From Marsupella aquatica (taxonomy: Eukaryota > Plantae > Marchantiophyta): DNA of 64,000 nt. Below the pieces are notes generated by a model. That model saw only the letters and a program-made list of their open reading frames with translations, searched no databases and was not told the DNA's origin. The stretch covers positions 4,963,181 through 5,027,180 of the forward strand of contig OZ316895.1 of assembly GCA_973895155.1 (NCBI GenBank). Reading direction: 5' to 3'. The position numbers were made by a program, and so were the translations under genes. Positions 7,385 to 53,671 of this stretch are shown here, one piece after another. The stretch's first letter is position 1; each line of letters opens with the position of its first letter.

Positions 7385-7742
7385 ATAAAAGGCGTAAGAG
7401 AAACAATCGTACTGAAATCAAATCGAAAACCGGCGGGATGCCAAGATCGGCCGGGAGCATCTAACGAATCACTGTGTGAATCCCGTGTACGGAACTGACG
7501 AGCACTGTCTGAGCTCTGTCAACAGCGATTCAAGAAGAACTGAAAACCCACAAAGAAAGACATGCCCTAAGTAAACAAAGTCCTGGCGTCACACTAACAA
7601 GCGTGTTTGCTTCAAGAACGTCTTGCATTTGCTATAAGAACATGTCGCTAACTCAAGTAGTACACTAGCCCTAACTACATACCTAGCGGGCATGCGAGGG
7701 ACATGTCGATGTGCATAAGAGGCATTGTCCCTCTGCATGACA
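7385..7742 (-). repeat. Terminal repeat segment 'A' (5' end) of copy A1
   Basis: Matches 45202-45558, 62763-63121 and 25612-26611. Begins TGTCATG on the element sense strand. Confidence 0.9.
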
Positions 7743-10656: not shown

Positions 10657-10941
10657 CATTACAGATCTGGTCTCTTTGGTAATTTGATGACTTGTCAATC
10701 TTGAACCCGAAAGACATCAAGACATCATGCCATTACTCACAAACACTAGTTGTTCAATTGGGCTGAGAAGAAGTTCCATTCTTTTCCAGGCATCATTTTA
10801 CATTACAGATCTGGTCTCTTTGGTAGTTTGATGACTTGTCGACCTTGAACCCGAAAGACATCAAGACATCATGCCCTTACTCAAGAACACTAGTTTTTCA
10901 ATTGGGCTGAGAAGAAGTTCCATTATTTTCCAGGCATCATT
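10657..10941. repeat. Tandem duplication, about 144-bp unit x2
   Basis: CATTACAGATCTGGTCTCTTTGGT...TTCCAGGCATCATT starts at both 10657 and 10801. Confidence 0.85.
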
Positions 10942-11533
10942 GCTGACCCATTCAGACAAAATAGCACTAGAGGTCAATCTAAAAAAAACATGACTTGACA
11001 TCTTGACTACTTTCTCTGCAAGGTAGTCTAAGTAGTCAACTCCAATCTGCAACCATTTCCTTTATCTTTTTGGTGTAAGAGCAGCAATCACTTTATGCAA
11101 TCCATGGGGATGGACAGGGACATTGTCCTGGTCCATCCAGGCTTCAGATTCAGTCTTTGTCCGCACAAATTTTTGTCCATACTACATCCTGCTCTAAAGT
11201 TCAGGAAACGTTTTCATGAAAATAGGAACATGGAATAGAAGTAGTTTTGAGCCCACCTCTTCTTGTACTGTACACTCAATCCTGGCAAGAGACTCTGAAC
11301 GTAATAACTTTTGTTCATACTACATCCTGGTCAAAACTTCAGCAAACATTTTTAGGAAATATATAGGAGCATAGAGTAGAAATCAATGGTTCTGAGCGAG
11401 CCTCTTCCTGTACACTCAGCTGTACACTCAATCCCGCCAACGAGATGAGTGTACCCATCTTATCATTTGATTTGGTCAGCTCCTCCCATGATATTTCCTG
11501 TTTATCTCATTGATGCATGTCCCAACCTGTTTC

Positions 11534-14500
11534 TCAAGCGAGATTTGCTTGAGAGTCTTTTGATTTTGCTGCAATGCTTCCCCAACCCTCAGGTAGCCGC
11601 TCCAATTTGGGACAATCTAATAGCACACTGGGTACCGGATTGAGATCCCCCAAACGGTCCGGTATCCTCTTCAACTTTTTGGACTCAATGGTCAAATCCT
11701 CGAGAGCTGCGAGCTCGCCAAAGTCTTCCGACAAGCTCTTGAGTTGCCGACACTTTTGTAAGCCGAGTTTTTCCAGTGACGAGAGGCTTCCAAAACCCTG
11801 AGGCAGCTGCTTCAATTTGGGACATTGCAACCGCAGGTTGCGCATGGATTTGAGAGCCCCAAAATTGTCGGGTAAGCTCTGTAACACATCGGACTGAATG
11901 GTCAAATCCATCAGAGTTGCAAGCTGACCGAAGTCATCCGACAAGCTTTTGAGTTGCTCACAGTTCCGTAGTGTTAAATGTTGCAATGAAGAAAGTTTTC
12001 CGAAATCCTCAGGCAGCTGCTTCAACTTGGGACAATGCAACAGCAGGTTGCGCATGGATTTGAGAGCGCCAAAATTGTCGGGTAAGCTCTGTAACACCTG
12101 AGACCGAATGGTCAAATCCATCAGAGTTGTAAGCTGACCGAAGTCATCCGACAAGCTTTCTAATTGCTTACACTCGCGCAATCTTAACTTTTCCAGTGAA
12201 GAAAGTCTTCCGAAACCCTCGGGCAGCTGCTTCAGTTTGGGACATTGCAACAGCAGGTTGCGCATGGATTTGAGACCGCCAAAACTGTCGGGTAAGCTCT
12301 GTAAAGCATGGGACCGAATGATCAATTTCATCAGAGATGCAAGCTGACCGAAGTCATCCGACAGGTTTTTGAGTTGCCCACAGTTCCGTATTGTTATATA
12401 TTTTAATGAAGAAAGTCTTCCGAAACCCTCAGGCAGCTGCTTCAACTTGGGACATTGCAACACCAGCCTGCGCATGGATTTGAGAGCGCCAAAATTGCCG
12501 GGTAAGCTCTCTAGCTCACTGGACTGAATGGCCAAATCCTTCAGAGTTGTGAGCTGGCCAAAGTCATCCGACAACCGCTTCAATGCCCAACAACTCCCTA
12601 GTTTTAATGTTTTCAGTGAACGGAGCCTTCCAAAACCCTCAGGCAGCCTCTCTAATTTGGGACAACCCAACGTCAGTAATCGGATGGATTCGAGAGCGCC
12701 AAAACTGTTTGGTAAGCTCTCTAGCTCTTCGGACTCAATGGTCAAATCCGTGAGACTCGCGAGCTGGCCAAAGTCATCCGACAACCTTTTCAATCCCCGA
12801 CACCTCTCTAGTGTTAATTTTTCCAGTGAAGAGAGCCTTCCGAAACCGTCGGGCAGTCGGTCCAATTTAGGACACTGCAATGTCACCGCACGCAGCGCTT
12901 TGAGAGAACCGAAGCTGTCGGGTAGTGTCTCGAGCTCATCGGAGACAATGGATAAATCTTTCAGAGTTGCCATTTGGCCGAAGTCATCTGACAAACTTTT
13001 CAGCTGCGAACAGCTTAGTGTTAATTCTTCAAGTGAGGAGAGCCTTCCGAAACTGTTGGGCAGCCTCTCCAATTTGGGAACAGCCAACCGCAACCTTCGC
13101 AGTGATTTGAGAGCGCCAAAACTGTCCGGTAAGGTCTCCAGAAGGCGGGTGTCAATGGTCAATTCCTTCAGACGCGTATGCTGTCCGAATGATTCGGCCA
13201 ATCTAAGATACTCGACCTTCACCAGTTCCAATTGTTCCAACTGAGAAAGATTGCTGAAATTCTCTCGTCGACTCTGCATTTGCACTGTCAAGTCCGTCAG
13301 GGACAAAACGTGCAGGTGTTTCAGTTTGCCCAAAGCTTCACCAAGTCCCTCAGGGACTTCACAATGACTAAGTTTCAAAATGCGCAGGTTGATGAGTTTT
13401 CCCAAGGTTTCAGGAAAGTCGTTTGGGATCACAAAACCACTGAGTTGCAGGACAGCTAAATCAGTCAGTTGGATGAGGCTGATCTGGAACGGACAAATGA
13501 TGGCAGAGTCGAATTCCCAGCTTAGAAGACGAAGCTTTTCTGGAAGACCCTTTCCCTCACCTATATCAGCAATACCATGAATCTCCACGTATTTCAATTC
13601 TTTCAGCCAAACTAAAGAATCGACCCGAAGTGTTGCGTCCCATGCATCCCCACAAGACCCAAGCCGCAAACTCTTCGTATTTTCATTCACCTACAAACAT
13701 AAACTCTCAAATCAGTATTATTCCGGTGCTAAAGTTGTGTGAGAGAAAAATATACGGCATGAAAAGACCCCAGGACAGGGTTTTCGAATGAGATTTTGTC
13801 GGTCCAAAAGCTACACGTAATATGCAACACTGTCTCGCTAAGAGCTCTCACCATTTTTGCGTTAAGTTGATCCACCACCGCCTTAACGTTATTTTTGCTA
13901 CCTTGCACCATGGTACCTTTCGAAAGCTTCTTAGCCAGGTCTCGCAATTGCTCATGGACCCAGACTTCCTTGTATTGAACTTCCTGTAGATATCCGCCAA
14001 TAGACAACAACTTTGTCATCGTGACTTCCTTCACCATTGCCCTGTCAACCAAGATTCTCCATGTTGTCTCTGCCTTCCTGTTGCTCCATGCAGCAAGGGC
14101 TGTGTCCAATCGCTCTCCAAACAAAAATGTGGCGGCATCACAAAACAAATCTTGCGCCTGGCTTGAAAGCTTGTTATAGCTCACCTCCAAGGTAGCCCAC
14201 AATCTGTCATCTTCATTTTGAACTCCCTCAACGGATATAGCTTTCTGGAGATTGTCTAACGTGTCCTCCCACACTTCATCCGATGTCTCGTTACGAAGGT
14301 ACCGGCCCATGACTTCCAGCGTTAGTGGCAACCCACCGCATTTCCCAACCAGTGACTTGACATGGTGTGCCAATTGACCCGAATCACGTGGGGGAATTCT
14401 GTCTGAGCCGAATGCATGTTTGCAGAAAAGCTTCGTCGCGTCGGTCGTGTCTAAAAACTGAAGTTCATGGACTTTGCAGTTTTCGTGAAACGCGAAAATC

Positions 14501-16984
14501 CTTTGATTACGGCTTGTGATGATCAAGCAACTGCCATCCCCGAAGTGCTGCCATGCAGGCAGGACACGAAGTTGATCTATAGAGTCAGCGTCATCCATAG
14601 CGACCAATGTTTTCTTCCCCTTCATCCGAGACCATTCCGATTGAGCCCCATCCAGCTTTACCCCTTTGTGATGAAAGTTCTCAAGAACCACCTTCTCCAA
14701 ATCGTTGATGGCGAAGCCTTTCACAGTATCGACGAAGCAGGTGTACTCAAACTCTTTTGAAATATTGTTGAACACTTCTCGGACGAGGGTGCTCTTACCG
14801 ATTCCACCCATGCCAAAGATCCCCAAAACAGCTCCACCCTTCAGCAATTTTTGAACTTCCTGAGCACGCGTTGTCAGCCCGACAATATAGGCTGGCAGCC
14901 CCGAATATATTTTATGAACAGGCTCTTCATCGTGAATCTGTCCTTCCGCCTGAAAACGTAGAACAATTCATTTAAAGTCTTGAATGTCCACATACAAAAC
15001 GAATGGTGATTGGAGTAGACGTAATCTCACGTGAAGTACTGCCAGCAACTTCAGGTGACTTTTAATCAGAAATAATCAGGAAAATCGGTTGAGGAAACAA
15101 TAAGACACGAACATGCTGTCAAATGGTGTCCCGGACACAAAAAACCTCTGCTGAAATTGGGGCATTGTTTCAAGAATGTAGATGAACACAATCAATTACA
15201 CTGTTAGCCTGTGTATTACAGAATTTTGTGTCTCCTTAGCAGAAACAGCAAAAGCTACGAACCTCAAAAGCATGAACTTCCTCATTGTAACAACATATCC
15301 TGAGATAGTCATGCCTGTTGCTTTTCAACTGTTCCTTACCTCTTTCATCACTGCATCGATGAATTCCACTAGGAGGCTATAGTTGCTCGAATTGGTTGAC
15401 TTCGGTCTACAAACATTGAAGTGGTTTGTCTCTGGAGCTGTGTAAAATCCATCCACATCAGACCTTGCTGACGCCTCTTCCACAATAAGGCCACTGAATC
15501 TTCCCTGTAGGAATTGCAAGGAGAACACGTCAATCAAGTGCACATGGTTCCATAACCAATCCTTTTGAGAATTTCTCAGGCCAAAGCTGTATCATGGTCT
15601 GGTACTTTAAATCTGATAGAATAGAAGATTGGCCAGGCTGCTACGTTACACAGAAGACTATTCAACTAGGCTTTTTAGATTGTTTGCAAATATGAGAAAA
15701 TTTTCAATTCAACTTAGAAAAAATCTCTCCAACAACATGCCTTGCATACTAGGATTGAAGGGAGTTTTGGGAAGAGAGGTGGCGTCAAACTGACGAGGAT
15801 GACATCTCAAATATCCTACTTCAACAATCCATTGTCTAAGTTACCCAACAGGACAAAGGATGTATCTCTAACTCATGCATGTTCATTATTACACGGGGTT
15901 CTATTCAAATCTGGTAATTCTCATGTTATTTGATATAAGCACACAAATACGTACATTTTTAATTTTGAAATGTTGGAGATGAAAGCAGCAGCTACATACC
16001 AGGGTGACTTTAACATTTTCTACGATTCCATAAGTTCTCCAACGTTTCTTCACACGTAACATACGAAAGTCTTCACTTAGCCTTGCAGCCTCCGGATTGA
16101 GCGGTGCAGACCGTTCAAACAGTATCCCTTTTGTGAATACAGTGTTGGATTCAGCTAGCCTGGTCCCATGGTGTGGAGTGGCATAAAAGAAGAGTCCTTT
16201 TAATTGGTCTAAGAACTTTTGCACAGGTTGGGTTACTTCGGTAGGAGCTAGAGCCACTTTCTTGGTGGCATAAACACAAAGTTCTTTCATTACAAGCCCT
16301 CCAATGCAATGTCCCACTAGAATCACGGGGCATTTGTTTTGCCCAACTTGAGCTCCTCCTATCAAACATTGGAGCAAATTTTCTGTTGTGACGAACATAT
16401 CCATATTCCCATCAGTCTCGTTTCTGTGTGCGTGTGCATCATACGAGATAACTAAAATGCGGGCCTTGGGAAACTGTTCCAAGATCCAATTGAGCCACAA
16501 TCCTGAACCATCTTCTGCGATCCATGTGTCAAGATGTGCTTCTTGTGTTTCTTGAGATTTTCCCAGTTGCAGACCGTGGAAAAAGACAAGCTCAACCGAG
16601 GGCTCAGAGCTTGAAGGACTCGAAACTTCATGGACATAATCATTAATCTGCAACGAGACAAAAATGAACAAAGGACCCTTTTAATCACAAATTGAGCAAC
16701 TCGTTACCATGATGATGGAAACAGCGAGCACTCTAAACTAGAGGAGCCTCAATGAAAGCTGTTGCTTAGGCTATGTTATTTATAAACTAAACCCAAACAA
16801 AAACACAAACTACCAAGTGATGATTTAAAACGGCCCAAGCAAGGTAACGCAAGCTATCTACCTCTCGTGGTCTACGTGGACCATCGTTAGACCCTGCTCT
16901 TGATGACGATGCCCGTGTTGAAAGTGCAACATTATCTTGTATATCTGTAGGTAGCTGAGAGAGGAAATCCCATATCCAACCCAT
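11534..16984 (-). CDS. alpha/beta-hydrolase-NB-ARC-LRR (HNL-class) NLR immune receptor; predicted exons 16984-16862, 16647-16000, 15504-15340, 14949-13852, 13690-11534 (~1396 aa)
   Basis: GT-AG introns, all phase 0. Hydrolase motifs VFFHGL and VILVGHCIGGLV. NB-ARC: P-loop GMGGIGKS, kinase-2 VAMDDAD, GSCLIITSRN, CGGLPL, MHD-like VHEQLRDLA. More than 20 LRRs of type LxxLPxxFGxLxxL. Confidence 0.9.
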
Positions 16985-25437: not shown

Positions 25438-26789
25438 TGTCGTGACATATAGTATCGTAGCCATAGTGTATCGAAAAATACAAGTCACCGGCAAGGCATA
25501 TGTGCAAGCTGCTAGCAACCAACATGCATAGAAAAAGTCCCATCACATTTACAAGTGCCAAGAAAAAGCAAATGAGGTGGTATGTAGTAGTGGAGGTGTA
25601 AACCTCTGTATATAAAAGGCGTAAGAGAAACAATTGTACTGAAATCGAATCGAAAACTGGCAGGATGCCAAGATCGGTCGGGAGCATCTAACGAATCACT
25701 GTGTGAATCCCGTGTACAGAATCGACGAGCACTGTTTGAGCTCTGTCAACAACGATTCAAGAAAAACTGAAAACCAACAAAGAAAGACATGCCCTAAGCA
25801 AGCAAAGTCCTGGCGTCACACTAACAAGCACATTTGCTTCAAGAACGGCCCAGACTTGCTACAAGAACATGTCGCTAACTCAGGTAGTACACTAGCCCTA
25901 ACGGCCCCATTCACAATTGGGTGTACCTCGTAGGAACCACTTTCAGGACTCAAAAACATGCTTTTTTAGTGAAAAATAACTTTCGTAACATGGAAAAAGG
26001 TTCATCATGATTTTATGTCAAGACATTTAAGTCTAATTTTTTCACAAGACTATTTTACATGGCGTAACCTACCTCACCATGTAGATACATCAAGTTTTCA
26101 ACTATTTTAAGGGATCCTTTTATTGATGGCCCTAAATAAGCCAAAATTACTAATTATTTTTGTCCTATACATAAAGATTTAGTGTGTGTCACTATTTAAG
26201 TTTTGAAATATAAGATTATGCTATTAGTATGCATGCTTTGGTAAAATTTCATTGTCTAAAATGCATTTTTTAGAGTCCTTTTGAGTCCTGAAATGATGTG
26301 ACCCATTGCGTGACAAGTTCTTTTATCAATCTTTGAAGGACATATAAAGAAAGCTTCAAAGTCTCAAATGCTAGATAGTTTAATGAATGTTACCAACCTC
26401 TAGGATGTTTATTAAGTATAGTACATCAAATTTTCTATATCATCTCCTTACACCCTAAAAATGATATCCTAAAGCATAATAAACTATGGTCACTTTTGAG
26501 TGTGACGTTCCTTTTGGGTCCTCCAATTGTGAATGAGGCCTAACTACATACCTAGCAGGCATGCGAGGGACATGCCAATGTGCATAAGAGGCACTGTCCC
26601 TCGGCATGACAGCTGTCGTGACATATAGTATCGTAGCCATAGTGTATCGAAAACATACAAGTCACCGGCAAGGCATATGTGCAAGCTGCTAGCAACCAAC
26701 ATGCATAGAAAAAGTCCCATCACATTTATAAGTGCCAAGAAAAAGCAAATGAGGTGGTATGTACGTAGTGGAGGTGTAAACCTCTGTAT
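25438..26789 (-). repeat. 3' split-repeat block B1-GC-A2-B2 of copy A2
   Basis: 25438-25611 repeats 26614-26789. 25612-26611 (minus the MITE) repeats 45202-45558. Junction TGACA-GC-TGTCG at 26607-26618. Confidence 0.92.
25903..26540. mobile_element. 638-bp AT-rich MITE (PIF/Harbinger-like) inside repeat A2
   Basis: 18-bp TIR GGCCCCATTCACAATTGG / CCAATTGTGAATGAGGCC (1 mismatch). Flanked by TAA(C) on both sides. Absent from the other A segments. Confidence 0.85.
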
Positions 26790-31103: not shown

Positions 31104-33923
31104 CATCCAGAGCAGGAGTCCATGTAACTGGTGCGCTCAAGATTGGGGCTATTGGCTGTCCATTGTGCTGCCCAAGGTCTTCAAACTTGCGCAATGCAGC
31201 CACCAAAGATCCATGGGCTGCTTGGAGCCGTTGTACCACCTCTGGTTGATGATCCACGTTGCTGGAAAGTGCTGCTATACGTGTAGCAGCATGTGCAGCA
31301 ACCACCTCATCGTCATCCTCCTCAATCCAATCCTGCAATGGGTGGTTGACATAGGTAGCTGTGTGCACTGCTTTCAACACACAGTGGTGAGCCATAGGTG
31401 TATGGGCACCATGCAAATCAAGTGGAATGTAGCCCAAGTGTGAGCCATCAGTATGCCAATCAACTCTGTAGTATGCATGCTCATGCCAGTTGTCAATGGT
31501 AAAACCTGGTGGGAACAAAGCCTCCTGGCCAATGAGCACATCATACGTAGTGGCATTGGTAACCAAACATCTGACTGGGAAATGCAATTCCTGATCTGTA
31601 CCTCCATTAAAAGTGAGAGTGAGTAAAGTAGAACTCTCACCCAGCACATCCTCCACAGTGCCACTAGCAGTCCAAATATGCTACCTGGATTGCTATAAAT
31701 GATCAGTCAGCAGTCCCATCTTCTTGGCAAACTGAATGCCCAATATCACTGGTTGAGCGCCTATGTCTAGCATGACCACCTGAGGAGTGTGACCCTCCAA
31801 CTTGACCGCTGAATTCCTGTTATCAACAATGGCAATGGTGGTGGAAACTGAAGTCTTGTCGCTAGGCACCACTTTTGGCAGATGATGAGGTACCTTGTGA
31901 AGGGAGTTAGTATCCATGGTCTTTCCACTCAATAGCATAGTCAGGAAAGATGGAGTAGCATGAGCAGAATCCAGTGTAGCTCTGGTCACACAATCTGCAG
32001 CAATACTATCATCGCTACCACTGGAAATTGGTACTGGGATAGCCAAACCAGTGGAAGCATGTAATGGAGAAGAAGAAGGTCCAGTATGTACATGAGATTG
32101 GACCTCCAAAACCGGTGTCACAGGGGCTGATGAAGAATGCAGTGAGCCCTCTAGCGCTCTGATGACAGCTCTAGCATCCAGCTGTAAATCATGGCAACTG
32201 AAAAGTGGAGTTGTAAGAATCCTTTGTGCCATACCGGAGGTGAAATGCTCAAGCAGCTCAGGAGAAACAACTCCCTGTGAAATGTCAGCAACACCTGGTG
32301 GTGGAATGGATGTAGCTGTAGCTCCCTCCCCCCTTGCCAACAAGGTGCGCTCTTCAGCAAGTGTGAGTGGCTGAAAGGATTGGGGCATGACAGCCCGAGC
32401 TCCCCTGGCTCTAGTCATAGGACCAGCAGCAAGACCATCATCCTGTACAATGCGGCGGGTGGGAGCAGTACGGGAAGCAGCACTGGCCTGCTGGTAAGCA
32501 AAATAGGAAGGGCAGAATGAATCTGAAAATTCTGCCGTAAGGCCAGGCTATGTAGCAGAGGACAACACACACTCACCCATATGAGCATCAAATGGCAAGC
32601 CATAGAAAGAGCGGGGTAGAGGTGCTGAACTGTCAGTGGTGCCTGAGCCAGGGATGGGTTGCACGTGACCAGCCGGTTGAGAAGGACCAGCAGAGGCAGT
32701 TGACTTGCCTTTGATATTGGCAAGTTGGGCACGTAAGGACTCAACCTCATGAGTTAGAGATTGAAGTTGAGTTGCCTGTGCATTGTGAGCCTCCTTCTGA
32801 GCTGGTTACTTCTGTTGCTGCTTGGGCAATTTGTTGGCACCAGGTGCTTTGCCATTGGAAGGAGGAGCAGTTGATGCAATAGGAGCCCTCCTAGCTGGTG
32901 GGGGAGTGGAAACAGGAGCAGGATGAGTGGCCTGTTGTCGTAGCTGCTTCCTCTCTGGGAATTTGGCAAAACAAACTGCTTCCAAGTGACCCACTTTCCC
33001 GCAAAAATCACAAGACAGATCCTCAACAACAATATCACATTCATTAGCCTTGTGATTGGGGTTACCACAGTAGTTGCAAGATGGCAGCATGAAAGCAACA
33101 TGTGCTGGCTTGGTTTTGGAACCGTATGGTGGCACACGGGAAGGGGTGGCCAATGTAGGGGCAGCAGCCTGGTACCTGGATCGCGGTGGACGCGCAATAC
33201 TGGCCTCATAATGTGCATGGGCCAACTCAAGTTTGTCAGTAGTGTCATAGACATTGAGCAATGTGTAGCTGTCTCCAAACTCTGAGAATACTTGCTGCAA
33301 CACTTGCGAATGGAGAGCTGGTGTGCCCTCCAATGCACGAAGATAGCGATGCGCAGCCTCCAGGTCAGTGATGCTCTGGGTGTCCTCCTTCAGCTTGAGA
33401 AGCCGGCGATACATCATCTTCAATGTTTCATCGCGTTGCCTCACAAAGGTAGCCAACTGCATGATTTTGGCAGCACTCTTGATTGGGAATTCCAATTCAA
33501 GAACCTGGAAAAACTCAGCCATTGGATCAGCAAAGGCAGGAGAATCAATAGTGGGAGAAATGCCTGATGTAGCCTGTGCCAAGACAGTGGGAGTTGTCAC
33601 ACCATTCTGAGTAGTGTAGTAGTATATCGTGCTATTAGAGTATGTACGTTTGGTATGAGTGCTATTGGAGCCGATAAGGTTCTGTCAGGTTTGTGTGAGA
33701 GGGTACTTCTCACTTGTGAGGCATTGAAAGGTCATCTTTCAATGTTGAGCCTTGGAGAGAGAGGAGCTTGAGTGTGGCTATGGTGGCTGTGAGCTCCGCT
33801 TGTGTAACGTGGATTCCTTGAGTAGTGCAAGGTGCGTTGGCTTGACATACATGTGTGATCGGATCGGTGCGGGATCGATGGGGTATTGTTGACCGAGATC
33901 GTTGTGCCGATTGTATGGAGATT

Positions 33924-33935
33924 ACATTGAAAGAT
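33924..33935 (+). promoter_or_regulatory. Putative self-priming primer-binding site of element B
   Basis: ACATTGAAAGAT directly follows repeat A1 and is the exact reverse complement of ATCTTTCAATGT at 33734-33745 inside A1. There is no TGG-type tRNA PBS. Confidence 0.7.
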
Positions 33936-36900
33936 CACATTCGAAATCTGTTGTACGGACTGTGCGGACAGAAGTTCGATTGATTGAGTTGTCGACGGTT
34001 CGTGGTAGCTCGGATCGTGTGTTGTTATCGAACAGATTGTTGGTATCTTGACCTGTATCGTTGTTGTCCGATCGGCCTGCTTCCCGATCGATGTACAAAT
34101 CTGTGATTGGTGACAGGTTTTGAGTTGGAGGTCGATTGATGATTCGTGGAGGAAAGCGAATGTTGAGTAGATGTTGGACAGTGGAAGTCGATCCGTGAGG
34201 CTTCAGATCCGATTGCCGGCTACTGTGAGGCTTCAGATCTGATTGTTGGCTACTGTGGGGCTTCAAATCTGATTGCCGGCTATTGTTGGACGATGTTGGC
34301 AAGGCGCAGGTGAAGCGATGGCTCTTTTCCTGAAGGAACGGAGCTGCCAATGCCCCGTGCGACGGTATCATCATTTCAGTGAAAGAAACGAGGGTCAAGG
34401 GTGTTGAATCAAGCTGCTGCCAATTCTGTGGAAGGGCTGCGTTTTTCATGAAGGAAATCAACAGTTTTCGGGAGCTTTTCGTGAAGGAAGTAGTCGTTTT
34501 TGGGGTTAGGTGTGAGGCGCACGAGGTCACCCATCCCGAAAGTGCTCACGCGAGGCGACGCGTGAGGTCACCCATCCCGAAAGTGCTCCCAACCGCGAGC
34601 GCGAAGTCACCCATTGCGAGCGCAGGCAGGCGTGAGGTCGAGGTCACCCATCCCGGGGCTATTCCGGGCCGTGAGCGCGAGGGGAGGCACAAGGTCGAGC
34701 GCGAGGAGGTCACCCATCCCGGGGCTATTCCCAGCCGCGAGCGCTTAACTGGCAAGTTCTCATCCCACCTTGTGTACACACAAGCTTTGACAACTTGTTG
34801 TTTAGATTCAAGCGCCAGGGGGCTTTATACACTTCCCGGTTTGTTTAGAGGCCTATTCTAGGCCAAATCAGAGGCTGTTTGAGGGTTTTTGATACTTCTG
34901 AGTCCATCTAGACTCACAGATTGAACCAATTTTGCCTTGGTTCTCATCTACAACATTGGAGTGCCATTGTGAAGCCTATTATGAAGGCTCTTCCTTGAAC
35001 CTTATGCACATTGTCATATTGATTTGCATTTGCTTTTGTGTGGAGAGTTGAATGGTATCCATTCTTGTTTCTGGATCCTCTTCACACATGTTTCCTGTTT
35101 ATGCGCCATGTTAGTTTCATGTGGGCGCTTGATTCCATAGGAGTGATCCGGGTTTGCAACTGGACATTCTAGTGTGCTGTGTATTTCTCTCTTGGTGATG
35201 TTGGAGTGATGCCCAACACACCATGGTGAGTGCTTGTGGTGCTGACAGGGATAGATTGCCCTTAGGGTTAGCACATAGATTAGGTTAGGGTTGGTCACCA
35301 CGGATTCTTCTGGTGCTGCTGGATTACCCGATGGACGACGGACCGGTTTCACTCGGAGTGGGGCACAGTTTCGGCCAGCGGCATTGGTAGCAGTCAGCAG
35401 TGCAGCTTCAGACAGTGATTCTGATGAGGACTCAGTGACCAGTTCTCCTCATCATCAGGTGGTTGCACCTTTGTTGTGGGATATGGACGAGATGTACGGG
35501 GCTACAAAGGGCCCACGACGATACTCTGGTGCAGTTGGCACAATTGATCTGGATGACTTCATCCAGGAGTTTGATACGTGGTGCGATATGCAGACATTGC
35601 GTAATGTCACGTTGTTTACCCCTTTCATGGCATGGAAGGGATTATTCCAACATTTGGAGGGGCCACCCATGGATGACTACCATGAGTTTCGGAAGGCTCA
35701 TTTGGTTGAGATTGAGGCATGGAGGCAGCATTGGTCACCTAATTACGTGTCCATCACCTATGGCACTAGTGTGGCTGCCCAACCAATTGCCACAGCTGCT
35801 GCTTCTTCTAGCAGCACTAGCCAGAGTGGCACACCATCCACCAGCAGCACTCCAGCAGCATCCACCACTACTCTTGCCGGTGTGATTGTGACAGGAACTA
35901 GAGTTGCGCCAGCATTTAATCATGTGGTGGAATTCTTTGAGGTACTGAAGCAGAACTATCAGGGTGTGAGAACTGATAAGTTGAAGGGTCTTCAGGAGTT
36001 CCAACGCAAGACTGGAGAAAGCCTACGTGAGGCATACACACGTATGCGCAGATTGATCACTGTCACCAAGGGAGTGACAGAGGCTCAGGCAGTCCAATTT
36101 TGGTATGCAATTCTGGACAGAGAATTGCGACGCAGAGTGAGAGATGTCACTCTGCTTAGGGATGCAGATCCCACATTAGCAGTTGTTTTCACCCTTTCTG
36201 AGCGCATTGAGCTCAATATGGTGAATGAGAAGGTGGTGACTTCCGAATTTTCCAAGGAAGCACCAAAGGCTGCATCTACATCCACACTAGAAGCCTACTG
36301 CACGAGAGTCTACCAGCCAGAGACCTGTGCCCTCTTATGTTGGATAGCAGTCAGGATGTTGGACCTGTGGTGGGGATCATGCACAGAGATATTGTCCAGA
36401 TCATAGAGGATCAGGGGGAGCATCAGCGCCTGATCAGCGACAGTGTGATCACTGTGGAGCTCCTGGACACACCAAGGATAGGTGTTTCTCACTCCACCCT
36501 GAGTTACGGAGAGGAGGATCCCGTACACATGATCAGGGAAGAGGAGGAGGAGGTAGAGGTGGTGGACGTGGTCGTGGCATGCCACATGCAGGGAGACAGG
36601 GAGGTGACGCTACCCCTACTGTAACCATAGATCCAAAGGATGCTAAGATTGCTCAATTGGAGCAACAACTAGCTGCCATGGCTAGTTCCCAGGTGAGACC
36701 TAATTCTGGTGATGGGGCATCTACATCCTATGGACCTTCCACATCCCATGGTCCTTCCACATCTTATGGAGCTGATGGAGACCTTGCCACCATGGGATTC
36801 ATGTATGGCACTGCACATATTGATGCATCAGCAGCTTTGACACGTGGGGCAGCCAAAGCTCTTGAGCCCCGAGGAGCAGTAGTGGAGTTAGATCCACAAA

Positions 36901-38117
36901 GGGGGGATGCACGTCGGCAGACAAAGCTTCCTCAGTCTTTTACATTGTCAGAGACAGTTCAGACTGCCTCTATGAACCCGGTTCGGACAAACCCTGATGT
37001 GGGTAAGTTGGCAAAATCAGGTAGTGATGCAGCAGGGATGACAGGTACCTTGCTGGGGGCGGCTACTGCCATAGTACGCACCCCATTATTTTCAGCGACA
37101 GACATGCTGAACTTGGGAGTTGGTCCTGCAGAAGTGTTCAGATTGGCAGCTACACTCTGTGAGGACACTCCAGTGGTTGCTTCCCATGCAGAAGCAATTT
37201 GCAGTGTTGATGCAGTGAAGACCATGCCACCTATTGCTACTAGTGAGACATGGCATGCAGCAACAACGAGGTTGGTGGATTTACCAGCACGCCCTGCATT
37301 TGAGAGGACTAGGTTTAAACCTAGTGTTGTGTCATTGGATAATCGGAGTGGTATCTTCCGATTAGTTGGGCCTTCTGGAGCAGTATACCAGCTAGAGAGA
37401 GTGTTATTGGATACTGGTGCTCAGCCCTTGATGTTGGGGAAGTCTGCCATACGTGGATTGGGATTGCGTCCAGAGGATTTGGAGGATTGTCCCTTTCCCA
37501 TTCAGACTTCATTGGGGGGACCTACACCTACACAGCATATCACCAGGAGACCACTTGATTTGAGGATTCAGGAAGGTCATACCACAGATAGCTCACAGAT
37601 ACAGGCGCGAGCTATTCTGACTAAGGCAGAGTCATATGATGTGTTGGTGGGATGTACAGTGCTCTACCCCATGGGATTTATTCTTGATTTTTGGGAGGAA
37701 TCAGTGTCATATAGACCTGATTGGCAGTCAGGAGATGCTCGATTGAGCAAATTGCCAGTGAGATTTAGTGGACCTATGGGAGGCCCTAAATCCACACCAT
37801 TGTCTTTGGCAGCATTCAGTGGTGTAATTGCTGGACCTGATGATTTGATTGAGGGTAATACGCATGCAGCCGATGTTCCACCATTGGAGGAGTCTCATGA
37901 GGAGCACATCATGCGAGGATTACCTGTTGGCAATGTTGTGCCACCAGTGTGGGGCACTGCACAAGCCTTGCCACAGGCAACAGCACGATTGGTACATGAT
38001 GCATGGCGTCATGCTTTTACACCACAGTCAGGAGCAGAGCAGTCTCTTGCAGATGGACCTGTGACTCTTTCACCATTGGATACCACTCCTATTGCTTGGC
38101 AGTATCCACCGGAGGGT

Positions 38118-39060
38118 ATTTGTTGGTTGGATCTTTTTGGTGGGATTAGCACTGGATTGGCTGCTATTCTTCAGGCAGGAATTCCTGTGCGTCGTTATTT
38201 GTATGTGGAGACAGATGAGACAACACGGAGGGTCTCATTACGACATGTGGCTATGTTGGTGGATAGATATCCACAGTTGCTGCCAGTGGATGCTGTTCGT
38301 GGTTATCAGCATGCACTACCTGCTGATATTTCATTGTTGGGGGCGGATCATCTACATCGTGTTGGCCCCATTGATTTGGTGATTGCTGGTTGGCCATGTC
38401 AGGGCCAATCTAGAGCTGGCATTGGGCATGGACTTCATGATCCATGCTCTGCATTGTTTTGGGAGATGTTACGGGTGTTGCGTCACCTCCAGCTACATCA
38501 GACACAGTCTCCAGCATACATTTTGGAGAATGTGCCATTGTTAGGTGATGATCGTAGTCGGATTGTTGCCAGTGTTCACCAGGTGAGGTCTTGGATTGGA
38601 CCTGCTGTGTTATTGGATGCTGCATGTGTGGGTTCTCGTGCACATCGTCCACGCTTGTGGTGGACTAATTTGATCCCATGTGAGGTGCTGAAGCGTGCAT
38701 TTGACAGCATTCCACGCTCACCAACCTTAGTGGTGGATAATATTTTGGATCCAGGGCGTCGTGCACAGGGTGTGACCCAACCTGATAGACCTCCATTGGC
38801 AATGGTCAATGCAGTTGGGTGCCCACGTTGTGCATTACCCACTCTTGTTAGCCACTCTACTTCATATGCATTCAGAGCAGGTGGCCCTGGACTTGTATGG
38901 GACACAGCTCTCCAGCAGTTAGTGGAGCCTACTGCTGATGAGAGAGAGCGTGCTATGGGATTTTTGACTGGCACCACTGCAGTTGCCTCTGTGTCAGAGG
39001 GTTTGCGGCGCCAGGTTCTTGGTCAAGCAATGGATTTGAATTGTTTGACTTGGATTATTA
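38118..39060 (+). other. DNMT3-like C5 cytosine methyltransferase domain of element B (uninterrupted)
   Basis: WLDLFGGISTG (I), YVETD (II), VIAGWPCQG (IV, catalytic PC), YILENVP (VI), AHRPRLWWTN (VIII), ERERAMGF (IX), RRQVLGQAM (X). Confidence 0.92.
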
Positions 39061-42000
39061 GCTTGGGAGTAGCTGAACAGTTGCGGATGCGCTCTGCTGG
39101 AATTACTGATTGTCCCTTGGTGAGCTTGCGGTCCACTGAGACAGTATTCACCACAGCTGGGGGCGAGCAGACAGTCCATGGACCTATGACAGGATTGGCG
39201 GCTGGACAGACTGTTGAGCAGGAAGGGACTACTCAATCTACTACTAAATAGCAATCATCGGCTATCTCTTCTACCCTACAAAGAGATATTAGGGATTTGG
39301 TGGAGAGTTGGGAACCACAGCTTGGCCCTAAGTTAACAGGGGAGGAGAGACGTTGCATGCATCGATTCCTGAAGAGTTATTGGAATTGTTTTGCATTCAG
39401 CATGAAGGATTTGGGGACATTGAAGGGCCCTGGTATTCAGATTGAATTGGCTAGTGATGCGCCAATCTTTCATAGACCATACCGTTATAGTGACATGGAG
39501 AGAGCTCTGATTCAAAGCAGAACTCAAGATTTGTTGGAGGCTGGATTGGTGGAGATTTCATATGGGGAGTATGCATCTGCCACAGTGATGCTAGCCAAGA
39601 AGGATGTGCAAGGCAATTACACAGATAGGCGCATGTGTGGTGATTATAGACCTATTAATCGCCAGACAAAATCTGATCGATATGCCATGCCCACACCTGA
39701 GGAGATCTTTGATGCTGTGGGGCATGCAAAGGTTTTCAGTTCATTGGATCTGAGGGCAGGATACCATCAGCTTCCAATTAGGCATGCTGACAGGTCCAAG
39801 ACAGCATTCTAGGGGATTGATTCTTATGGCAAAGATCGTTTGTATCAATGGTTATTCTTACCATTTGGGTTGAAGAATGCACCAGTTGAGTTCCAGAGAG
39901 TCATGGATCAAATCATTGCAGGTTTGGATTTTGTTAGATGTTATATTGATGATATTTTGGTCTATTCTTCTACTGTGGAAGAACATCAGCAGCACTTGCA
40001 GACTGTGTTGGAGAGATTGAGAGCACATGGGTTGAAGCTCCATCCTAGCAAGTGTAAGTTCTTCCAAGACCAGATTGAGTATTTGGGCCACACCATATAC
40101 CCAGGGGGATTGGGTGTACAGCAGACTAAAGTGGAGGCCATTACACAGATTCCTTGTCCTACTGATGTGAGTAGAGTTCGTGCATTCTTGGGATTGGCGA
40201 GCTACTACAGGAGGTATGTTAAAGGATTTAGCCAGCTTACTAAACCTTTGACCATACTCACTAAGTTGGATCAGGAATGGATTTGGGGTGATGACCAGGA
40301 GCATGCCTTTCAGGAGTTGAAGCAAAGGTTGGCATCATCCCCTATTTTGAGAAGACCCATTTCAGGCAGACCATTTCAGCTACACACTGATTGGAGTGGA
40401 GTAGGACTTGGAGCAGTGCTGACTCAGAAGGATGATGAGGAGAATGAGTTTGTTGTGGCTTATGCCAGTAGATCAAACAATTCAGCAGAGGCTAAGTATA
40501 GCTCTTATGAGGGAGAGTGTTTGGCAGTAGTGTGGGCTGTTGCACACTTTCGTTGCTACTTGTTTGGTAACCCCTTCACCTTGATCACTGATCATCAGCC
40601 TCTTAAGTGGTTAATGGAGTCTGACAAGCTTACAGGGAAGCTTGCACGATGGGCATTGTTGTTACAGGAGTATGATTTCCAGGTGGTGCATAGGCCTGGA
40701 AAAGTGAACTTGGATGCAGATGGATTAAGCCGCAATCCATGTACCAGTCAGCAGGATGAGACTGGAGCCAGATGGCATGATGAGTCAGATAAGGAGATGG
40801 TGCCAGGATGGCATGCATCTGCCTTTCTTTGTTGGGTGCCAGCATACAGTGGATCTATGGACTCTACTTCATTGGATGGAGTGGGTGATGAGTCTTCAGA
40901 TGTGGATGTTGGTGAGGTAACTTCTGGACAACAAGATATTCACAATGATGTGAGAGTGTTGGAATATCTGCGCAATAGTTCTATTGTTGGCAGTGTTGAT
41001 GCCAAGGAACGTGACAGGGTTCTACAGAGAGCCAAGAGGTTTCGATGGGAGGGAAACCATCTTTTGAGAGTACTGCATGATGGTAGGATGTTGGTGGTAC
41101 CAAAACCATCACAACGAGTACATTTGGTGCGACATGCGCACGAGGAGTTGGGTCACTTTGGTGTGAAGCGCACTTACAGCTTGCTGCAGACGCAGTATTG
41201 GTGGCGTGGTATGCACACTCATGTCCAACAGTTGATAGCTAAGTGTGTGGTATGTGACAGAGTGAGAGCATCATTTAATGCTCCCACTCCCCAGTTGCAC
41301 CCGTTATCGATCATGGGTTTGGGATATCGTTGGAGTTTGGATTTTGCTGGTCCATTACCTCTTACCCAACGTCATAATCGGTATGTTTTGGTCATGGTGG
41401 AGCACTTCTCCAAGTGGATTGAGCTAGTGGCGTTGCCAGATAAAGCCAGTGGAGGAGTTGCTGCTACATTTTTGGATCGTGTACTCAGTCATTTTGGAGC
41501 ACCAGCTGAGGTGTTGACTGATCAGGGAACTGAGTTCCGTGGAGAGTTTGAGAGTTTGTGTGAACAAGCTCTGATTGATCATCGCACTACCTCTTGTGAT
41601 CATCCTGAGGCAGATGGATTAGCTGAGAGAGTTGTGCAAACTGTGAAGAGAGGATTGCGTAAGTATGGCTTGCAGGTTGGTCATCTGGGAGATTGGGATC
41701 TCCAACTACCTTGGTTAGCTATGGGCTACCGTTTCAGTCGGCAAGCATCACTTGCATCCTTCTCACCCTACTTTTTGCTCTATGGTAGAGAGCCAGATTT
41801 GCCAGCAGCTATTCGTCGTCATGCTGCACTAGTTGTGAACTTGGATGATCCTGATGTTTGGGTCAAGGTGTGTTCAGAGAGAGCACGGGTATTTCAGAGA
41901 GTGATGCCCATGGCTTTTGACAACCTTGCCATTGCCCAACATCGTGATACTTTGAGGTATGCCACTATTCGTGGAGGAGGTTACCGTGCAAGCATTCGAC

Positions 42001-42236
42001 GATTTCATCCTGGTGATTATGTTTATTTGCAGCAGACAGCACCCACGACACTTGATGTGACCGCAGGCCGGATAATCTTACGTGTGCGTGAAGTGTTGCC
42101 TTCTGGTGTCCTGATGTTGGAGGGACGCGATGGTATGGTTTGGAAGGATCATGTGCGCAACTGTGCACCATGTCACCTTCCCAACATTGATGGTACAGTA
42201 GATCCAAGCTTGGCACATGTTCGTGCTGGCTTGAAA

Positions 42237-42377
42237 TGTATGTTGTGTGGATCTGCTCAGGGAGCAGCTACTATGTTGATTTGTGATAAGTGTTCTAGAG
42301 GATGGCACATGTCATGTTTGACACCACCATTGCAGGTGATTCCTAGTGGATCATGGTTGTGTCCTCAGTGTCGGTGA
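42237..42377 (+). other. PHD finger at the integrase C-terminus of element B
   Basis: CMLC...MLICDKCSRGWHMSCLTPPL..IPSGSWLCPQC, a C4HC3 pattern. Confidence 0.92.
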
Positions 42378-42550
42378 AGCCGACTAGTTATCATTTGTGT
42401 TCTCTTGGCAGATATGGATTGCAGGTAGGTGATCGATGGGGCTCACTTGCACCCGGCCTCCTGATCTTCACACCTAAAAAGGTGTATATCAACCTTGTAG
42501 AACTCATGGCTAGCTAGAGTTAGAGGACCTTACTCCCAGCTAGGGGGGCG

Positions 42551-43157
42551 ATTGTGGGTTTTGGACATGTGTGGACATGAGTTCCACTTGTATTCCATTC
42601 TCTTGTATTTGTGATGTGGCAGTGTGACTATGTCTGGATGTATGTGACAAGCGATGTATGTTGTGTAGCGATATGTATGCGCACGACAGCTGTCACACCA
42701 TTCTGAGTAGTGTAGTAGTATATCGTGCTATTAGAGTATGTACGTTTGGTATGAGTGCTATTGGAGCCGATAAGATTCTGTCAGGTTTGTGTGAGAGGGT
42801 ACTTCTCACTTGTGAGGCATTGAAAGGTCATCTTTCAATGTTGAGCCTTGGAGAGAGAGGAGCTTGAGTGTGGCTATGGTGGCTGTGAGCTCCGCTTGTG
42901 TAACGTGGATTCCTTGAGTAGTGCAAGGTGCGTTGGCTTGACATACGTGTGTGATCGGATCGGTGCGGGATCGATGGGGTATTGTTGACCGAGATCGTTG
43001 TGCCGATTGTATGGAGATTATTGTGGGTTTTGGACATGTGTGGACATGAGTTCCACTTGTATTCCATTCTCTTGTATTTGTGATGTGGCAGTGTGACTAT
43101 GTCTGGATGTATGTGACAAGCGATGTATGTTGTGTAGCGATATGTATGCGCACGACA
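42551..43157 (+). repeat. 3' split-repeat block B1-GC-A2-B2 of element B
   Basis: The 138-bp B1 (42551-42688) equals B2 (43020-43157). The 329-bp A2 (42691-43019) equals A1 (33595-33923), with about two substitutions seen by eye. Confidence 0.95.
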
Positions 43158-45189
43158 GAGTAACTGGCGCAGTGGTAGGAACTGGAGTAGGAGGGGAAGT
43201 AGTAGGAGCAGCAGCATGGGCTGCAATGGCATTCTGTAATGCCAGTTGTGAGGCAGCTGCAATTGCACTAGCATAGGGAGGATTAGGCAATTGTGTGACA
43301 GCAAGCAACCGTTGAGAGTGCTGCTCATACACATCGAAAGCCTCATGGTGCACATACCTGGCTAGCTGCTTAAATGCAAAAGCATTTGTGAAATTGCTGC
43401 CGTACTTCAACTCCAATTTGTAAATGATAGTGTAGAAAGTGGATTTGAACTCACGCAAAGAAACAGTGCCTGGCCGCCCACTGAAGCGCTCAATGCGGCT
43501 AGATGAGTGACTGGCATCCATGCTGTATGTCGGTGAAGCTAGAACAATCACTGATGCAAAATTGCCGAGACTCCAATGAAATGGGCACCAACGGTCGTGG
43601 ATCACTCCGTAAGTGGTACCTGGGCGTTGGTGGCGATGAGCTGCTACCTCCCGGCTCGTTTGCTGACATGCTATGTGACAGTACCCAAATTGTGCAAAAT
43701 GTGTAAAGACTAAGAAAACCCGTCACTGTCAAAAAACCGTCAGGGAAAACGGACCCTTAAAACCTCAAATGTACCCGTGTTGTGCTTGCCGGAAAGACCA
43801 TTTGATGTGTATGCCGGGCCCTCACCGTGATGCAGATAAAATGTGGTGGCATCAAAGAAATCCGGGAAGAATAGGCCCTTAAACGTGAATAGGCCCCCCC
43901 CACCTTAAGTGTATACACATCCGGGCCCCATTGTGGACCCGGAAACTGCAGCCGGACCGGCCGAGTGTGTATACACGCTCGTGGCACGCTCCCTATGCAG
44001 CGGTAGTCGGAAGGCGTCGAAAAGAGGCGAGGAGGTACTATGACCGGCGAGGGAAAGAAATGGGAGGCAACTCGTGAAGGCAGCGGCCGAGGCGAGGCAA
44101 GGCGAAAAGGAGAGAAGTCGGCAGAAAAGAAACAGGCCCCTCTTAAGTCGAGGGGGAAGGAAGGAAAACGGTCAAAAAAGGGAAAACCGGGCACGATGCC
44201 CTGTGCATTGACAGTCGATGGTGAAGGGCGAGGCAAAAGAAAACCGGACCCTAATTAATTCGGGCCAGCACTTGAGGCGAGGCAGGGCGTTCAGAAAGAA
44301 AGGAGCCCCTGACGTGAGCCCTCCATAGGGCTTCGTGCCCCCCCAATATGAGCTCCCGAATAGACGGGGCTACGAGCTCCCCTCCCCTCCTGAAAGGTTC
44401 TGTGGGCCTCGTGCCCTGGTGAAAGTGTGACTCCCGAGAGAGGGAGTCAAATGTACTCCCCTCCTCCCTTAAATGCTTCATAGGGCCGTGTGCCCTCTCC
44501 TTGCGCTCCCCCCTCCCCTCTTTTAATGCTGTATTGGGCTTCGTGCCCTCTCCTGGCAGTCGCTCCCCCTCCTCCCTGCTTTCGCTTGTACTTGGCTCCC
44601 CCCTGCCCCTGCATTAATGCATAATAGGGCCTCGTGCCCTCTCCATGCTTGTGCCTCAACTTAATCCCCCTTCCCTACTGTGTAATTGTTGGCAACAGGC
44701 GAGGGAGGAAGAAAAATGCCGAAGGGAGGGCGCACGGCCCTATGCGCGACCCAGGGCAATGATGAGCCCCGCATGTGTATACATAGGGGAGGCAGCTCAC
44801 GACGGTAGCTGCGAGGGGAGGCAAAATGAAACGACGGCCGATGACAGAAAAGAAAGAACGGGACCCCAAAGGGTCGTCAAAACGTAAGGGGAAGGGAAGG
44901 TGGTCGCGCTGCGACCGGAAAACACCGAATATGGCCCGAAAAAGGTCGTGGCAGTCAGCAGTCGGCAGCCATAGTCGAAAGCAATTATGGAAGCAGATCG
45001 AGTTGCGGCTGGCAAGAAAAATCCGGGCCCCTTGTTATGTGTATACACTTAAGTATACACATAACACCACCATAAACCCATAACTTTTAACTCAACACTC
45101 CGATGTCCGTCGAAGAAATTGCAATGGCTTCACCAGAAATTGTCGAGATCATCACAAGCAATCTTCTTCCCCTCACCACTATCTCGACG

Positions 45190-45201
45190 AGTTCTTCTTG
45201 A
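45190..45201 (-). promoter_or_regulatory. Putative self-priming PBS of family A
   Basis: Plus-strand AGTTCTTCTTGA abuts repeat A and is inverted-complementary to TCAAGAAGAACT at 45347-45358. The same pairing occurs at 62751-62762/62908-62919 and, with 1 mismatch, in A1. Confidence 0.7.
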
Positions 45202-45558
45202 ATAAAAGGCGTAAGAGAAACAATTGTACTGAAATCGAATCGCAAACCGGCAGGATGCCAAGATCGGCTGGGAGCATCTAACGAATCACTGTGTGAATCC
45301 CGTGTACGGAACCGACGAGCATTGTTTGAGCTCTGTCAACAGCGATTCAAGAAGAACTGAAAACCAACAAAGAAAGACATGCCCTAAGCAAGCAAGTCCT
45401 GACGTCACACTAACAAGCACATTTGCTTCAAGAACGGCCCATACTTGCTACAAGAACATGTCGCTAACTCAGGTAGTACACTAGCCCTAACTACATACCT
45501 AGCGGGCAGGCGAGGGACATGCCAATGTGCATAAGAGGCACTGTCCCTCGGCATGACA
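45202..45558 (-). repeat. 5' repeat segment A1 of copy A2
   Basis: Matches 25612-26611, 7385-7742 and 62763-63121. Confidence 0.92.
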
Positions 45559-52300: not shown

Positions 52301-53671
52301 ATATGACTCTAACTTGTAGCACGTTGGTTTGGGTGCAAAGTTGATTGATTTAAGAGTGGGATCAACATTTTCGTGCAGCTCAAGCCAATGTCAATGGAGA
52401 CATAATGCCTAAGGTCAATTCACATAGCAAACAACCAATATTACTATCATAATGATTCTTCTTAGCACTACATATTGTATTCTATCTTCTAACAATGCAA
52501 GGTCACAAAATTGCCTTGAAACCTTAGAGACAATCAACTGCTGAACTACTCAAGTCATTATATTTGGACTACAGCAGCACCACCTGCCAAGTAGAATCAA
52601 TCTTGGGCCATACTCCCATCCCGGAGCTAGGGAGGGCTCAAGACCAAATACCAGAATCAATCTCAAGATACTCTGTTCCCTAGCACCAGCTCAACTAACT
52701 ACCAAAAACAATTCTAACCTTGTGGGCAATTGCATTAAAGTTCACATTCCTTTGTATTCTTGCCTCATTTTTACTCATCTTAATAATAACTAAAGCAAAA
52801 CCTTTTTACTTCTTTCCCAACAATCATGGTGTACATGGCTCAATTGTTTTTGCAAAACGCCTCCACAAAAGGACTGTCTCCCTTTGAATTGTTGCCCAGC
52901 AGCACCCAACGCTAGGGTAGTTGGGTGGGAAACTAATTTTAGAATATTAATAAACCCAAGGCGCAGTTTTTTGTTTTTTAACGTTAGTTGATTTGGGTAT
53001 TGGATGACACTATACTAGACCACTAAAGTGCCATGGGCACTCAATTTGAGTTGAGAAGAGTACTTTCTCAACTAAGATGAATTGAAAAGTTAACTTTGCT
53101 TTTCTCCTCACTTTTCTCAACAACGAACACTAAGCTTGTTGAATTATGACATCTTCCTTCATGATGATCCAATCATTACTCATACCATGCACACGTAGTC
53201 GACACAATCTCTACGTGGTTCACCTCTTCTCCAAGGCTACGTCCACACGACCACAACAACTTTACTTCACAATAGTCGAACACACAAGCTCTCTCTCTTC
53301 CTCAAGTTGCTTCGTTACAATGAGCAAGCGGGTGAGCAAGCACCACACACCAACGGCTTACACTAGCCCTGGTATATACAAGGTCACAAATGACTAACCT
53401 AACCTTAGCTAAATCCCTAACTGTGGTTAGCCTAAGTGCCGTAACCTATGATTCACTGTCGTGACATATAGTATCGTAGCCATAGTGTATCGAAAACATA
53501 CAAGTCACCGGCAATGCATATGTGCAAGCTGCTAGCAACCAACATGCATAGAAAAAGTCCAATCACATTCCCAAGTGCCAAGAAAAAGCAACTGAGGTGG
53601 TATGTACGTAGTGGAGGTGTAAACCTCTGTATCCCCCCCAGACCACAGTCACAAGGAGGGCTGAGGAAAAG

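Follow-up and report, generated by a model that had tools for sequence, protein, structure and literature searches.

The window analysed here is a stretch of 64,000 nucleotides from the liverwort Marsupella aquatica, which carries copies of two retrotransposon families, A and B. The question that it raises is what primes reverse transcription in these elements. An earlier note on this DNA had pointed out that the 12 nucleotides directly after the first repeat (A1), called the box below, are complementary to a 12-mer inside that repeat, and had proposed that the minus strand is primed by the element's own RNA, as in Tf1 of Schizosaccharomyces pombe. That reading is now supported by covariation of the two 12-mers in two new families, and by the lack of TGG at the boundary in four families out of four. 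Judged from sequence, Tf1-type self-priming, in which the minus strand would be primed by the presumed 5′ end of the element's own RNA, is very probable. The features concerned are collected in Table 1.

Table 1. Features of the two families in the window (positions in the window; box and start-site assignments are predictions)
Feature	Position	Strand	Remarks
Element B	33595-43157	+	A1-internal-B1-A2-B2; starts TG, ends CA; 4-bp target duplication GAGT
Repeat A1, element B	33595-33923	+	Distal U3 and predicted R-U5; starts TGTC; GAGT at 33591-33594
Upstream 9-nt arm, family B	33722-33730	+	Copy of part of the box; can form a hairpin with 33736-33744
Inner 12-mer, family B	33734-33745	+	Predicted self-primer (RNA nucleotides 1-12)
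Predicted helix stacked on primer helix	33746-33846	+	33746-33751 with 33839-33844, MFE fold
Predicted primer-binding box, family B	33924-33935	+	0 nt after repeat A1
Coding region, element B	35279-42377	+	gag-like ORF, then protease region/C5 methyltransferase/RT/RNase H/integrase/PHD
PPT, element B	42542-42550	+	Directly before B1; same tract precedes B in related families
3′ end, element B	42551-43157	+	B1 42551-42688, GC spacer, A2 42691-43019, B2 43020-43157
Internal junction, element B	42685-42694	+	GACA-GC-TGTC
Inner 12-mer, family B, second copy	42830-42841		Inside A2
Right target duplication, element B	43158-43161		GAGT
Family A host copy	25438-45558	-	Same A-internal-B-A-B layout; target duplication AGTC; element B nested inside
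3′ end, family A host copy	25438-26789	-	B1 26614-26789, junction 26608-26617, A2 25612-26611, B2 25438-25611
Predicted primer-binding box, family A	45190-45201	-	After A1 (45202-45558)
Inner 12-mer, family A	45347-45358	-	Predicted +1 at 45358; in copy 25438-45558
Family A copy	53457-63121	-	A-internal-B only; target duplication GTGA
Predicted primer-binding box, this copy	62751-62762	-	
Inner 12-mer, this copy	62908-62919	-	Exact complement of 62751-62762
Third family A copy	7373-7541	-	Extends past the window edge; box 7373-7384, inner 12-mer 7530-7541

Pfam matches in 20 open frames identify both families as Ty3/Gypsy, with RT, RNase H, a zinc-binding domain, rve integrase and a C-terminal PHD finger, and with a C5 DNA methylase (PF00145) upstream of RT. 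An aspartic protease and a CCHC knuckle were matched in family A frames, and element B has the acidic residues of RNase H, as judged from motif positions located by eye. No chromodomain was matched by Pfam in the window elements, which have the PHD finger instead. The pol sequences of the two families are 51% identical. The polypurine tract before B1 is G-rich, and A2 meets B2 without extra letters in the window copies. An empty site for element B is seen in contigs of public runs X1 and X5, whose loose ends match the window's own right flank. A frame change near 36348-36406 and TAG stops at 39249 and 39810 interrupt the coding region of element B, whose repeats are nevertheless nearly identical (2 differences in 329 nt between A1 and A2, 0 in 138 between B1 and B2); the element may have moved in trans.

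The three 12-nt pairs claimed in the earlier note are all exact reverse complements at the positions given there. The third family A copy, which that note did not mention, has a single mismatch, which would be a G-U wobble in RNA. In family B the complementarity is exactly 12 nt long, while in family A it is 14 nt, of which 2 lie within the end of repeat A. The boundary of A was set independently of the pairing, from the A2|B2 junction (43019/43020 in element B) and the PPT before B1. As a measure of chance, positions were counted that have a perfect 12-nt reverse complement lying 20-360 nt upstream: there are 21 among the 63,628 positions of the window (3.3 × 10⁻⁴) and 142 among 344,932 positions in loci L001-L048 (4.1 × 10⁻⁴), true cases being included in both counts. 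A search of 33500-34400 against Rfam gave no matches at E 1.

Further loci were collected by a metagenome scan (48 loci) and a scan of genome contigs (7 loci). Both pairing arms are visible in four families only (A, B, C and E), all from the streptophyte-like branch. Families C and E were out of sample, and the covariation check that the earlier note had called for was passed in both, with 12 of 12 pairs in family C (L021) and 13 of 13 in family E (L052, a 13-nt pair). The family C box, ACTCAAAGAACT, lies directly after A and has its complement inside A. At the measured background, the joint chance of these two pairs is about 2 × 10⁻⁷. As had been claimed for the window, the letters differ from family to family and the pairing is kept: 9 of the 12 columns vary over the four families, all as Watson-Crick pairs, and the primer 12-mers have a pairwise identity of 3-8 of 12. 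The A repeats themselves have no alignable similarity between the four families except for one 20-nt match. There is no G-U pair in the 49 bp of the four family representatives, and the neighbouring helix does have G-U.

Seven distinct family C loci have A together with the box, which is exact in 5 of them. One locus has a perfect 12/12 pair, four have 11, 10, 10 and 9 of 12, and two are without the inner 12-mer (deletion). The imperfect pairs are read as decay after insertion. In L011 the 12-mer is kept in A2 and lost in A1, which points to loss after insertion.

Several sources lie outside this count. Family D (L015, L040, L046) is represented by 3′ ends only, and its 12-mer is predicted from the motif that follows it. 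The alga-like loci L054-L057 are missing the 5′ end, although the internal junction is visible in L054 and L057. A pattern search for more families gave 78 matches, none of them with a pol relative, and the P0020 and P0045 queries yielded no further loci among viral contigs. The contig of L052 was assembled as circular, with a 127-nt overlap, which is taken as repeat collapse and not as a sign of a DNA circle.

Copies within each window family give a similar picture. For family A, contigs of four public runs were aligned over 45130-45420 (1461 contigs, variant threshold 3%, complete table). Of the 39 variant rows at 3% or above, nine fall within the 14 nt that follow the box; the box itself has one, compatible with G-U pairing, and the inner 12-mer is free of them. 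In the family B alignment, among the 40 rows listed of 63, both 12-mers are free of variants and the 11 nt that follow the box account for five. Conservation ends at the edge of the box, and no other conserved box follows in either alignment. No strand-changing joint was found at the box among the joints listed for the two families.

The predicted RNA start is the A of the inner 12-mer. A TATA motif lies upstream of it at -31 and -29 in two family C copies, at -29 in family E and at -31 in family D (with its 12-mer predicted from the motif that follows the 12-mer); there is none in window families A and B, making three of five families with TATA. Family B has GGGTA at the same offset as in C and D. 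The earlier note had also placed the start in an Inr-like TCA context in both families: this holds at 33734, 45358 and 7541, but the copy at 62919 has TTA. An Inr-like TCA is poor evidence when taken alone, since what the families have in common is only a pyrimidine followed by A; 7 of the 8 element starts whose 12-mer region is intact, plus D, have pyrimidine-A at +1.

An inverted repeat spans +1 in three families (9 bp in B, 10 bp in C and 11 bp in E); in D it amounts to 5 bp, and it is absent from A. According to folding predictions, the upstream hairpin in B, C and E can mask the 12-mer in RNAs that start further upstream; that it also masks the primer copy at the RNA 3′ end is a guess. 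For an RNA starting at +1, the predicted probability of the primer helix is 0.60 in B, 0.88 in L028 (family C) and 0.87 in E. With 30 nt of the real upstream sequence added it is 0.02, 0.17 and 0.00, and with shuffled upstream sequence the means are 0.48, 0.57 and 0.89. Family E is the only one in which, at both lengths, every one of the 20 shuffles gave a higher value than the real upstream sequence. Folding is unstable for L021 and B with long downstream sequence, and for family A it ranges from 0.01 to 0.94 depending on the choice of window and gives no support. The two motifs that would form the predicted helix stacked on the primer helix are also present in families C, D and E.

Two aberrant structures provide natural footprints. 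In L039 (3244-3878) the order pol-PPT-B-junction-A-box is followed by A in reverse complement, which begins at the 12-mer, extends to the A start and finishes with CA. Between the two A segments there are 12 differences in 180 nt, indicating that this is old genomic DNA and not a mirror made by assembly. Such a structure would arise if a plus strand with a copy of a 12-nt primer at its end folded onto the inner 12-mer, or if a long self-primer was copied. In L019/L021 an internal deletion has its left break 0-2 nt from the end of the box; the element has a near-perfect 4-bp duplication. Both structures are compatible with plus-strand DNA that terminates in the copy of a 12-nt primer. For Tf1, Li et al. 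(PMC11042837) report a single-stranded PBS copy at the end of about half of the cDNA, and they also describe PBS remnants for HIV-1. Since a PBS copy at the cDNA end also occurs in tRNA-primed viruses, the footprints bound the primer at 12 nt and do not name it. As a separate observation, the L039 fold-back ends at a TG/CA half-site, which seems to serve in either orientation.

What could prime the minus strand other than a short 5′ fragment of the element's RNA? A tRNA that binds by its CCA end needs TGG at the boundary. The boxes of the four families begin ACA, TCA, ACT and ACT and never TGG, so that a tRNA 3′-end primer is excluded by the sequence, in agreement with the earlier note. Priming by a tRNA half or another small RNA of the host, with the inner complement there by accident, is extremely unlikely, given four different boxes that are each perfectly matched in their own A repeat against a background of 4 × 10⁻⁴. 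None of the four complements holds the Met anticodon. In tRNAs an invariant U precedes the anticodon, and the single AAU, in family B, is preceded by C. Half-tRNA-Met and half-tRNA-Ile priming does occur in plants, where the portion of PMC6317226 consulted reports it for Ty1/copia lineages only. A tRNA scan found none in the window and one in 33 loci. The pairing might instead be a structural RNA helix, involved in leader folding, packaging or translation control, with priming by something else nearby. Covariation alone cannot tell structure from priming, and a second conserved helix adjoins the first, but the box abuts the cDNA end set by the A2|B2 junction with a gap of 0 nt, which is where the 3′ end of a primer must sit. 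The conservation stops there with no other conserved box to serve in its place, G-U pairs are confined to the neighbouring helix in the representatives, and the aberrant junctions land on the box edge. A purely structural role is thus very unlikely.

The remaining alternative keeps self-priming and has the RNA begin at a more upstream point, such as the start of A; the last 12 nt of a long 5′ fragment would then pair with the box. The inverted segment in L039 could equally be the copy of such a primer, families A and B have no TATA to fix the start, and with the whole of A included the copy at 62919 forms the helix in two of three folding windows (0.94, 0.83 and 0.10). Against this stand the TATA motifs at -29 to -31 in C, D and E and the upstream hairpin predicted to mask the 12-mer in B, C and E. 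Moreover, ends of the L039 type would be expected as the rule, and among the family C loci with a B repeat they are found at only one. We consider a long primer quite unlikely.

With a short self-primer, replication would proceed as follows. RNA polymerase II would start at the A of the inner 12-mer, nucleotides 1-12 of the RNA would pair with the box, and RNase H would cut after nucleotide 12 (13 in family E) to release the primer, as in Tf1. Strong-stop DNA would then transfer to the R copy in A2, and plus-strand synthesis from the PPT would give a linear B-A-internal-B-A DNA in which B+A is the LTR. U3 would consist of B and the proximal part of A, and the LTR would end in the primer copy; each round of replication would thereby rewrite the box from the 5′ end of the RNA.

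The TG/CA signal lies inside B+A, and the outer ends are without it, so that B+A behaves as an LTR with an internal signal. Five bryophyte-like families and two alga-like loci (both window families, L005, L015, L052, L054 and L057) have CA-NN-TG where B and A meet internally. This B|A junction lies between the PPT and the predicted start, and would be in U3 if the start site is right. Together with predicted linear cDNA ends that lack TG/CA, it is probably the most unusual trait of these elements. Because the linear ends have no TG/CA, we infer that integrase cuts at the B|A junction inside U3; the cDNA ends would be joined beforehand, a step of which we are less sure than of the earlier ones. 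A symmetric two-LTR circle would also yield A-B-A-internal-B copies, which leaves the joining and cutting step unsettled. No such copy was seen among the nine visible 5′ ends (5 in family C, 4 in the window), none of which has B upstream of A. Taken as a whole, the cycle of the Gypsy-DNMT/PHD elements could be new for retroelements with a DDE integrase, with self-priming gained apart from Tf1/sushi, a U3 hairpin that masks the 3′ primer copy, and a joined-end circle opened at a palindromic U3 site to give A-internal-B-A-B or A-internal-B. We put this forward tentatively, as something possible.

The 3′ ends in family C are B-A-B at 4 distinct loci, B only at 14 and aberrant at 2 (paired contigs merged by eye). 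A-internal-B-only copies are common, being found in the window (53457-63121) and at those 14 loci; they have clean CA ends and no 3′ copy of R, and 4-bp duplications flank those whose two ends can both be seen. At the A2|B2 join, L010 (2669-2688) and L011 (10837-10856) contain about 19 nt of filler, such as end-joined circles can have, whereas other copies are clean. In L027 (6843-6960) and L028 (12738-12855) B is fused to A and the internal junction is deleted at a short common motif. Summed contig depth over repeat A (45190-45399 and 33693-33881) is at least tenfold that of the adjacent internal region; summed depth is not a copy number, and the excess may reflect many solo repeats.

The closest named relatives are liverwort proteins with 73-75% identity, followed by proteins of Closterium, Klebsormidium and Tetraselmis. 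A quick tree of 55 rows places the PHD/DNMT set (28 rows, SH-aLRT 95) apart from rows with chromo or SH3_Tf2-1 domains; it was built without a Tf1 or Tcn1 reference, three short pieces were dropped, and L011 and L015 gave no row. Viral contigs retrieved with the alignment A1 query gave three loci, each of which either lies outside the PHD clade or was removed from the tree. By PF00145, layout and pol grouping, the elements fit the streptophyte Gypsy-DNMT3 type. The Klebsormidium proteins P0052, P0066 and P0074 fall in the same tree set as both window families, and are not labelled KnitGypsy. KnitGypsy-Dnmt3 is described as having DIRS-like repeats and Gypsy domains (Fig. 4c legend; de Mendoza et al., 2018, PMC5890265), meaning that the repeat layout was already known. 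It shares with the window elements a DNMT within Gypsy pol and the A..B-A-B repeats, while the window elements are closest to liverwort proteins. The text and three supplementary text files of that paper contain no analysis of primer, PPT, att or target site (the word primer occurs once, for PCR), and its supplementary figures may bear on priming.

Self-priming itself is known. In Tf1 the primer is nucleotides 1-11, with RNase H cleavage between nucleotides 11 and 12 (PMC7175516, in part). As far as the consulted portion of PMC6317226 goes, self-priming in plants is confined to two groups of LTR elements, in both of which it is predicted: Tcn1, related to Tf1/sushi, and the TAR lineage of Ty1/copia (Houba, Osr-1). 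Like Tf1/Tf2, Tf1/sushi and Tcn1, the present elements have a short box after the 5′ repeat that is complementary to the RNA 5′ end, here a predicted one, and like Tf1/sushi they have the Ty3/Gypsy domain order and no match to a tRNA 3′ end. They differ from Tf1 in a primer of 12-13 nt as against 11, and from Tf1/sushi/Tcn1 in having a PHD finger and C5 methyltransferase, no chromodomain match, 4-bp duplications, and split repeats with TG/CA inside U3 and not at the LTR ends. Membership of the Tf1/sushi/Tcn1 chromovirus clade was rejected on the chromodomain and the LTR ends. TAR elements have ordinary LTRs, and belong to another superfamily with another domain order.

Split direct repeats are also found in Ngaro/PAT elements, and SymbioDIRS-Dnmt3 combines the DIRS order with split direct repeats, A-coding-B-A-B (PMC5890265, in part). 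The arrangement is that of DIRS elements, which have a tyrosine recombinase and no target duplication, as against the DDE integrase, TG..CA ends and 4-bp duplications here; an identity as Ngaro/DIRS is ruled out by rve integrase and the 4-bp duplications. Troyka, which the part of PMC12440569 consulted describes as having CG..CG ends and 3-bp duplications and as restricted to animals, is ruled out by TG..CA and 4 bp. Phygy and Selgy have tRNA sites (PMC6317226 supplement, in part).

No earlier report of self-priming in the Gypsy-DNMT/PHD lineage was found in the literature searched, which did not extend to subscription journals and Repbase; in the part covered, bioRxiv 10.64898/2026.05.21.726589 mentions Gypsy-DNMT3 and has no match for priming or PBS. 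What is likely to be new here is self-priming in this lineage, combined with an integration signal moved inside U3. If true, this would be a third self-priming lineage, extending from algae to bryophytes, and would imply repeated escape from tRNA primers. The pairing would fix the U3-R-U5 register of a repeat structure noted in 2018 and left unexplained in the text searched. LTR-finding programs would overlook or misinterpret such elements if they insist on LTRs at the ends and on a tRNA site. The register would place the integrase signal inside U3, making integration from a joined-end circle, an old idea of early retrovirology, testable in a natural element.

Some further observations concern the surroundings. 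Within A2 of the family A host copy, at about 25903-26535, is a 630-nt AT-rich insertion with terminal inverted repeats, MITE-like and later than A2. The window also contains an NB-ARC and LRR resistance-like gene (11534-14967, minus strand), with an alpha/beta hydrolase-like frame upstream (15901-16680). The contigs of L052-L057 are eukaryotic retrotransposon sequence inside bacterial genome bins, evidently contamination; among them the alga-like L057 has, between pol and PPT, an additional long region of open frame (9860-12180).
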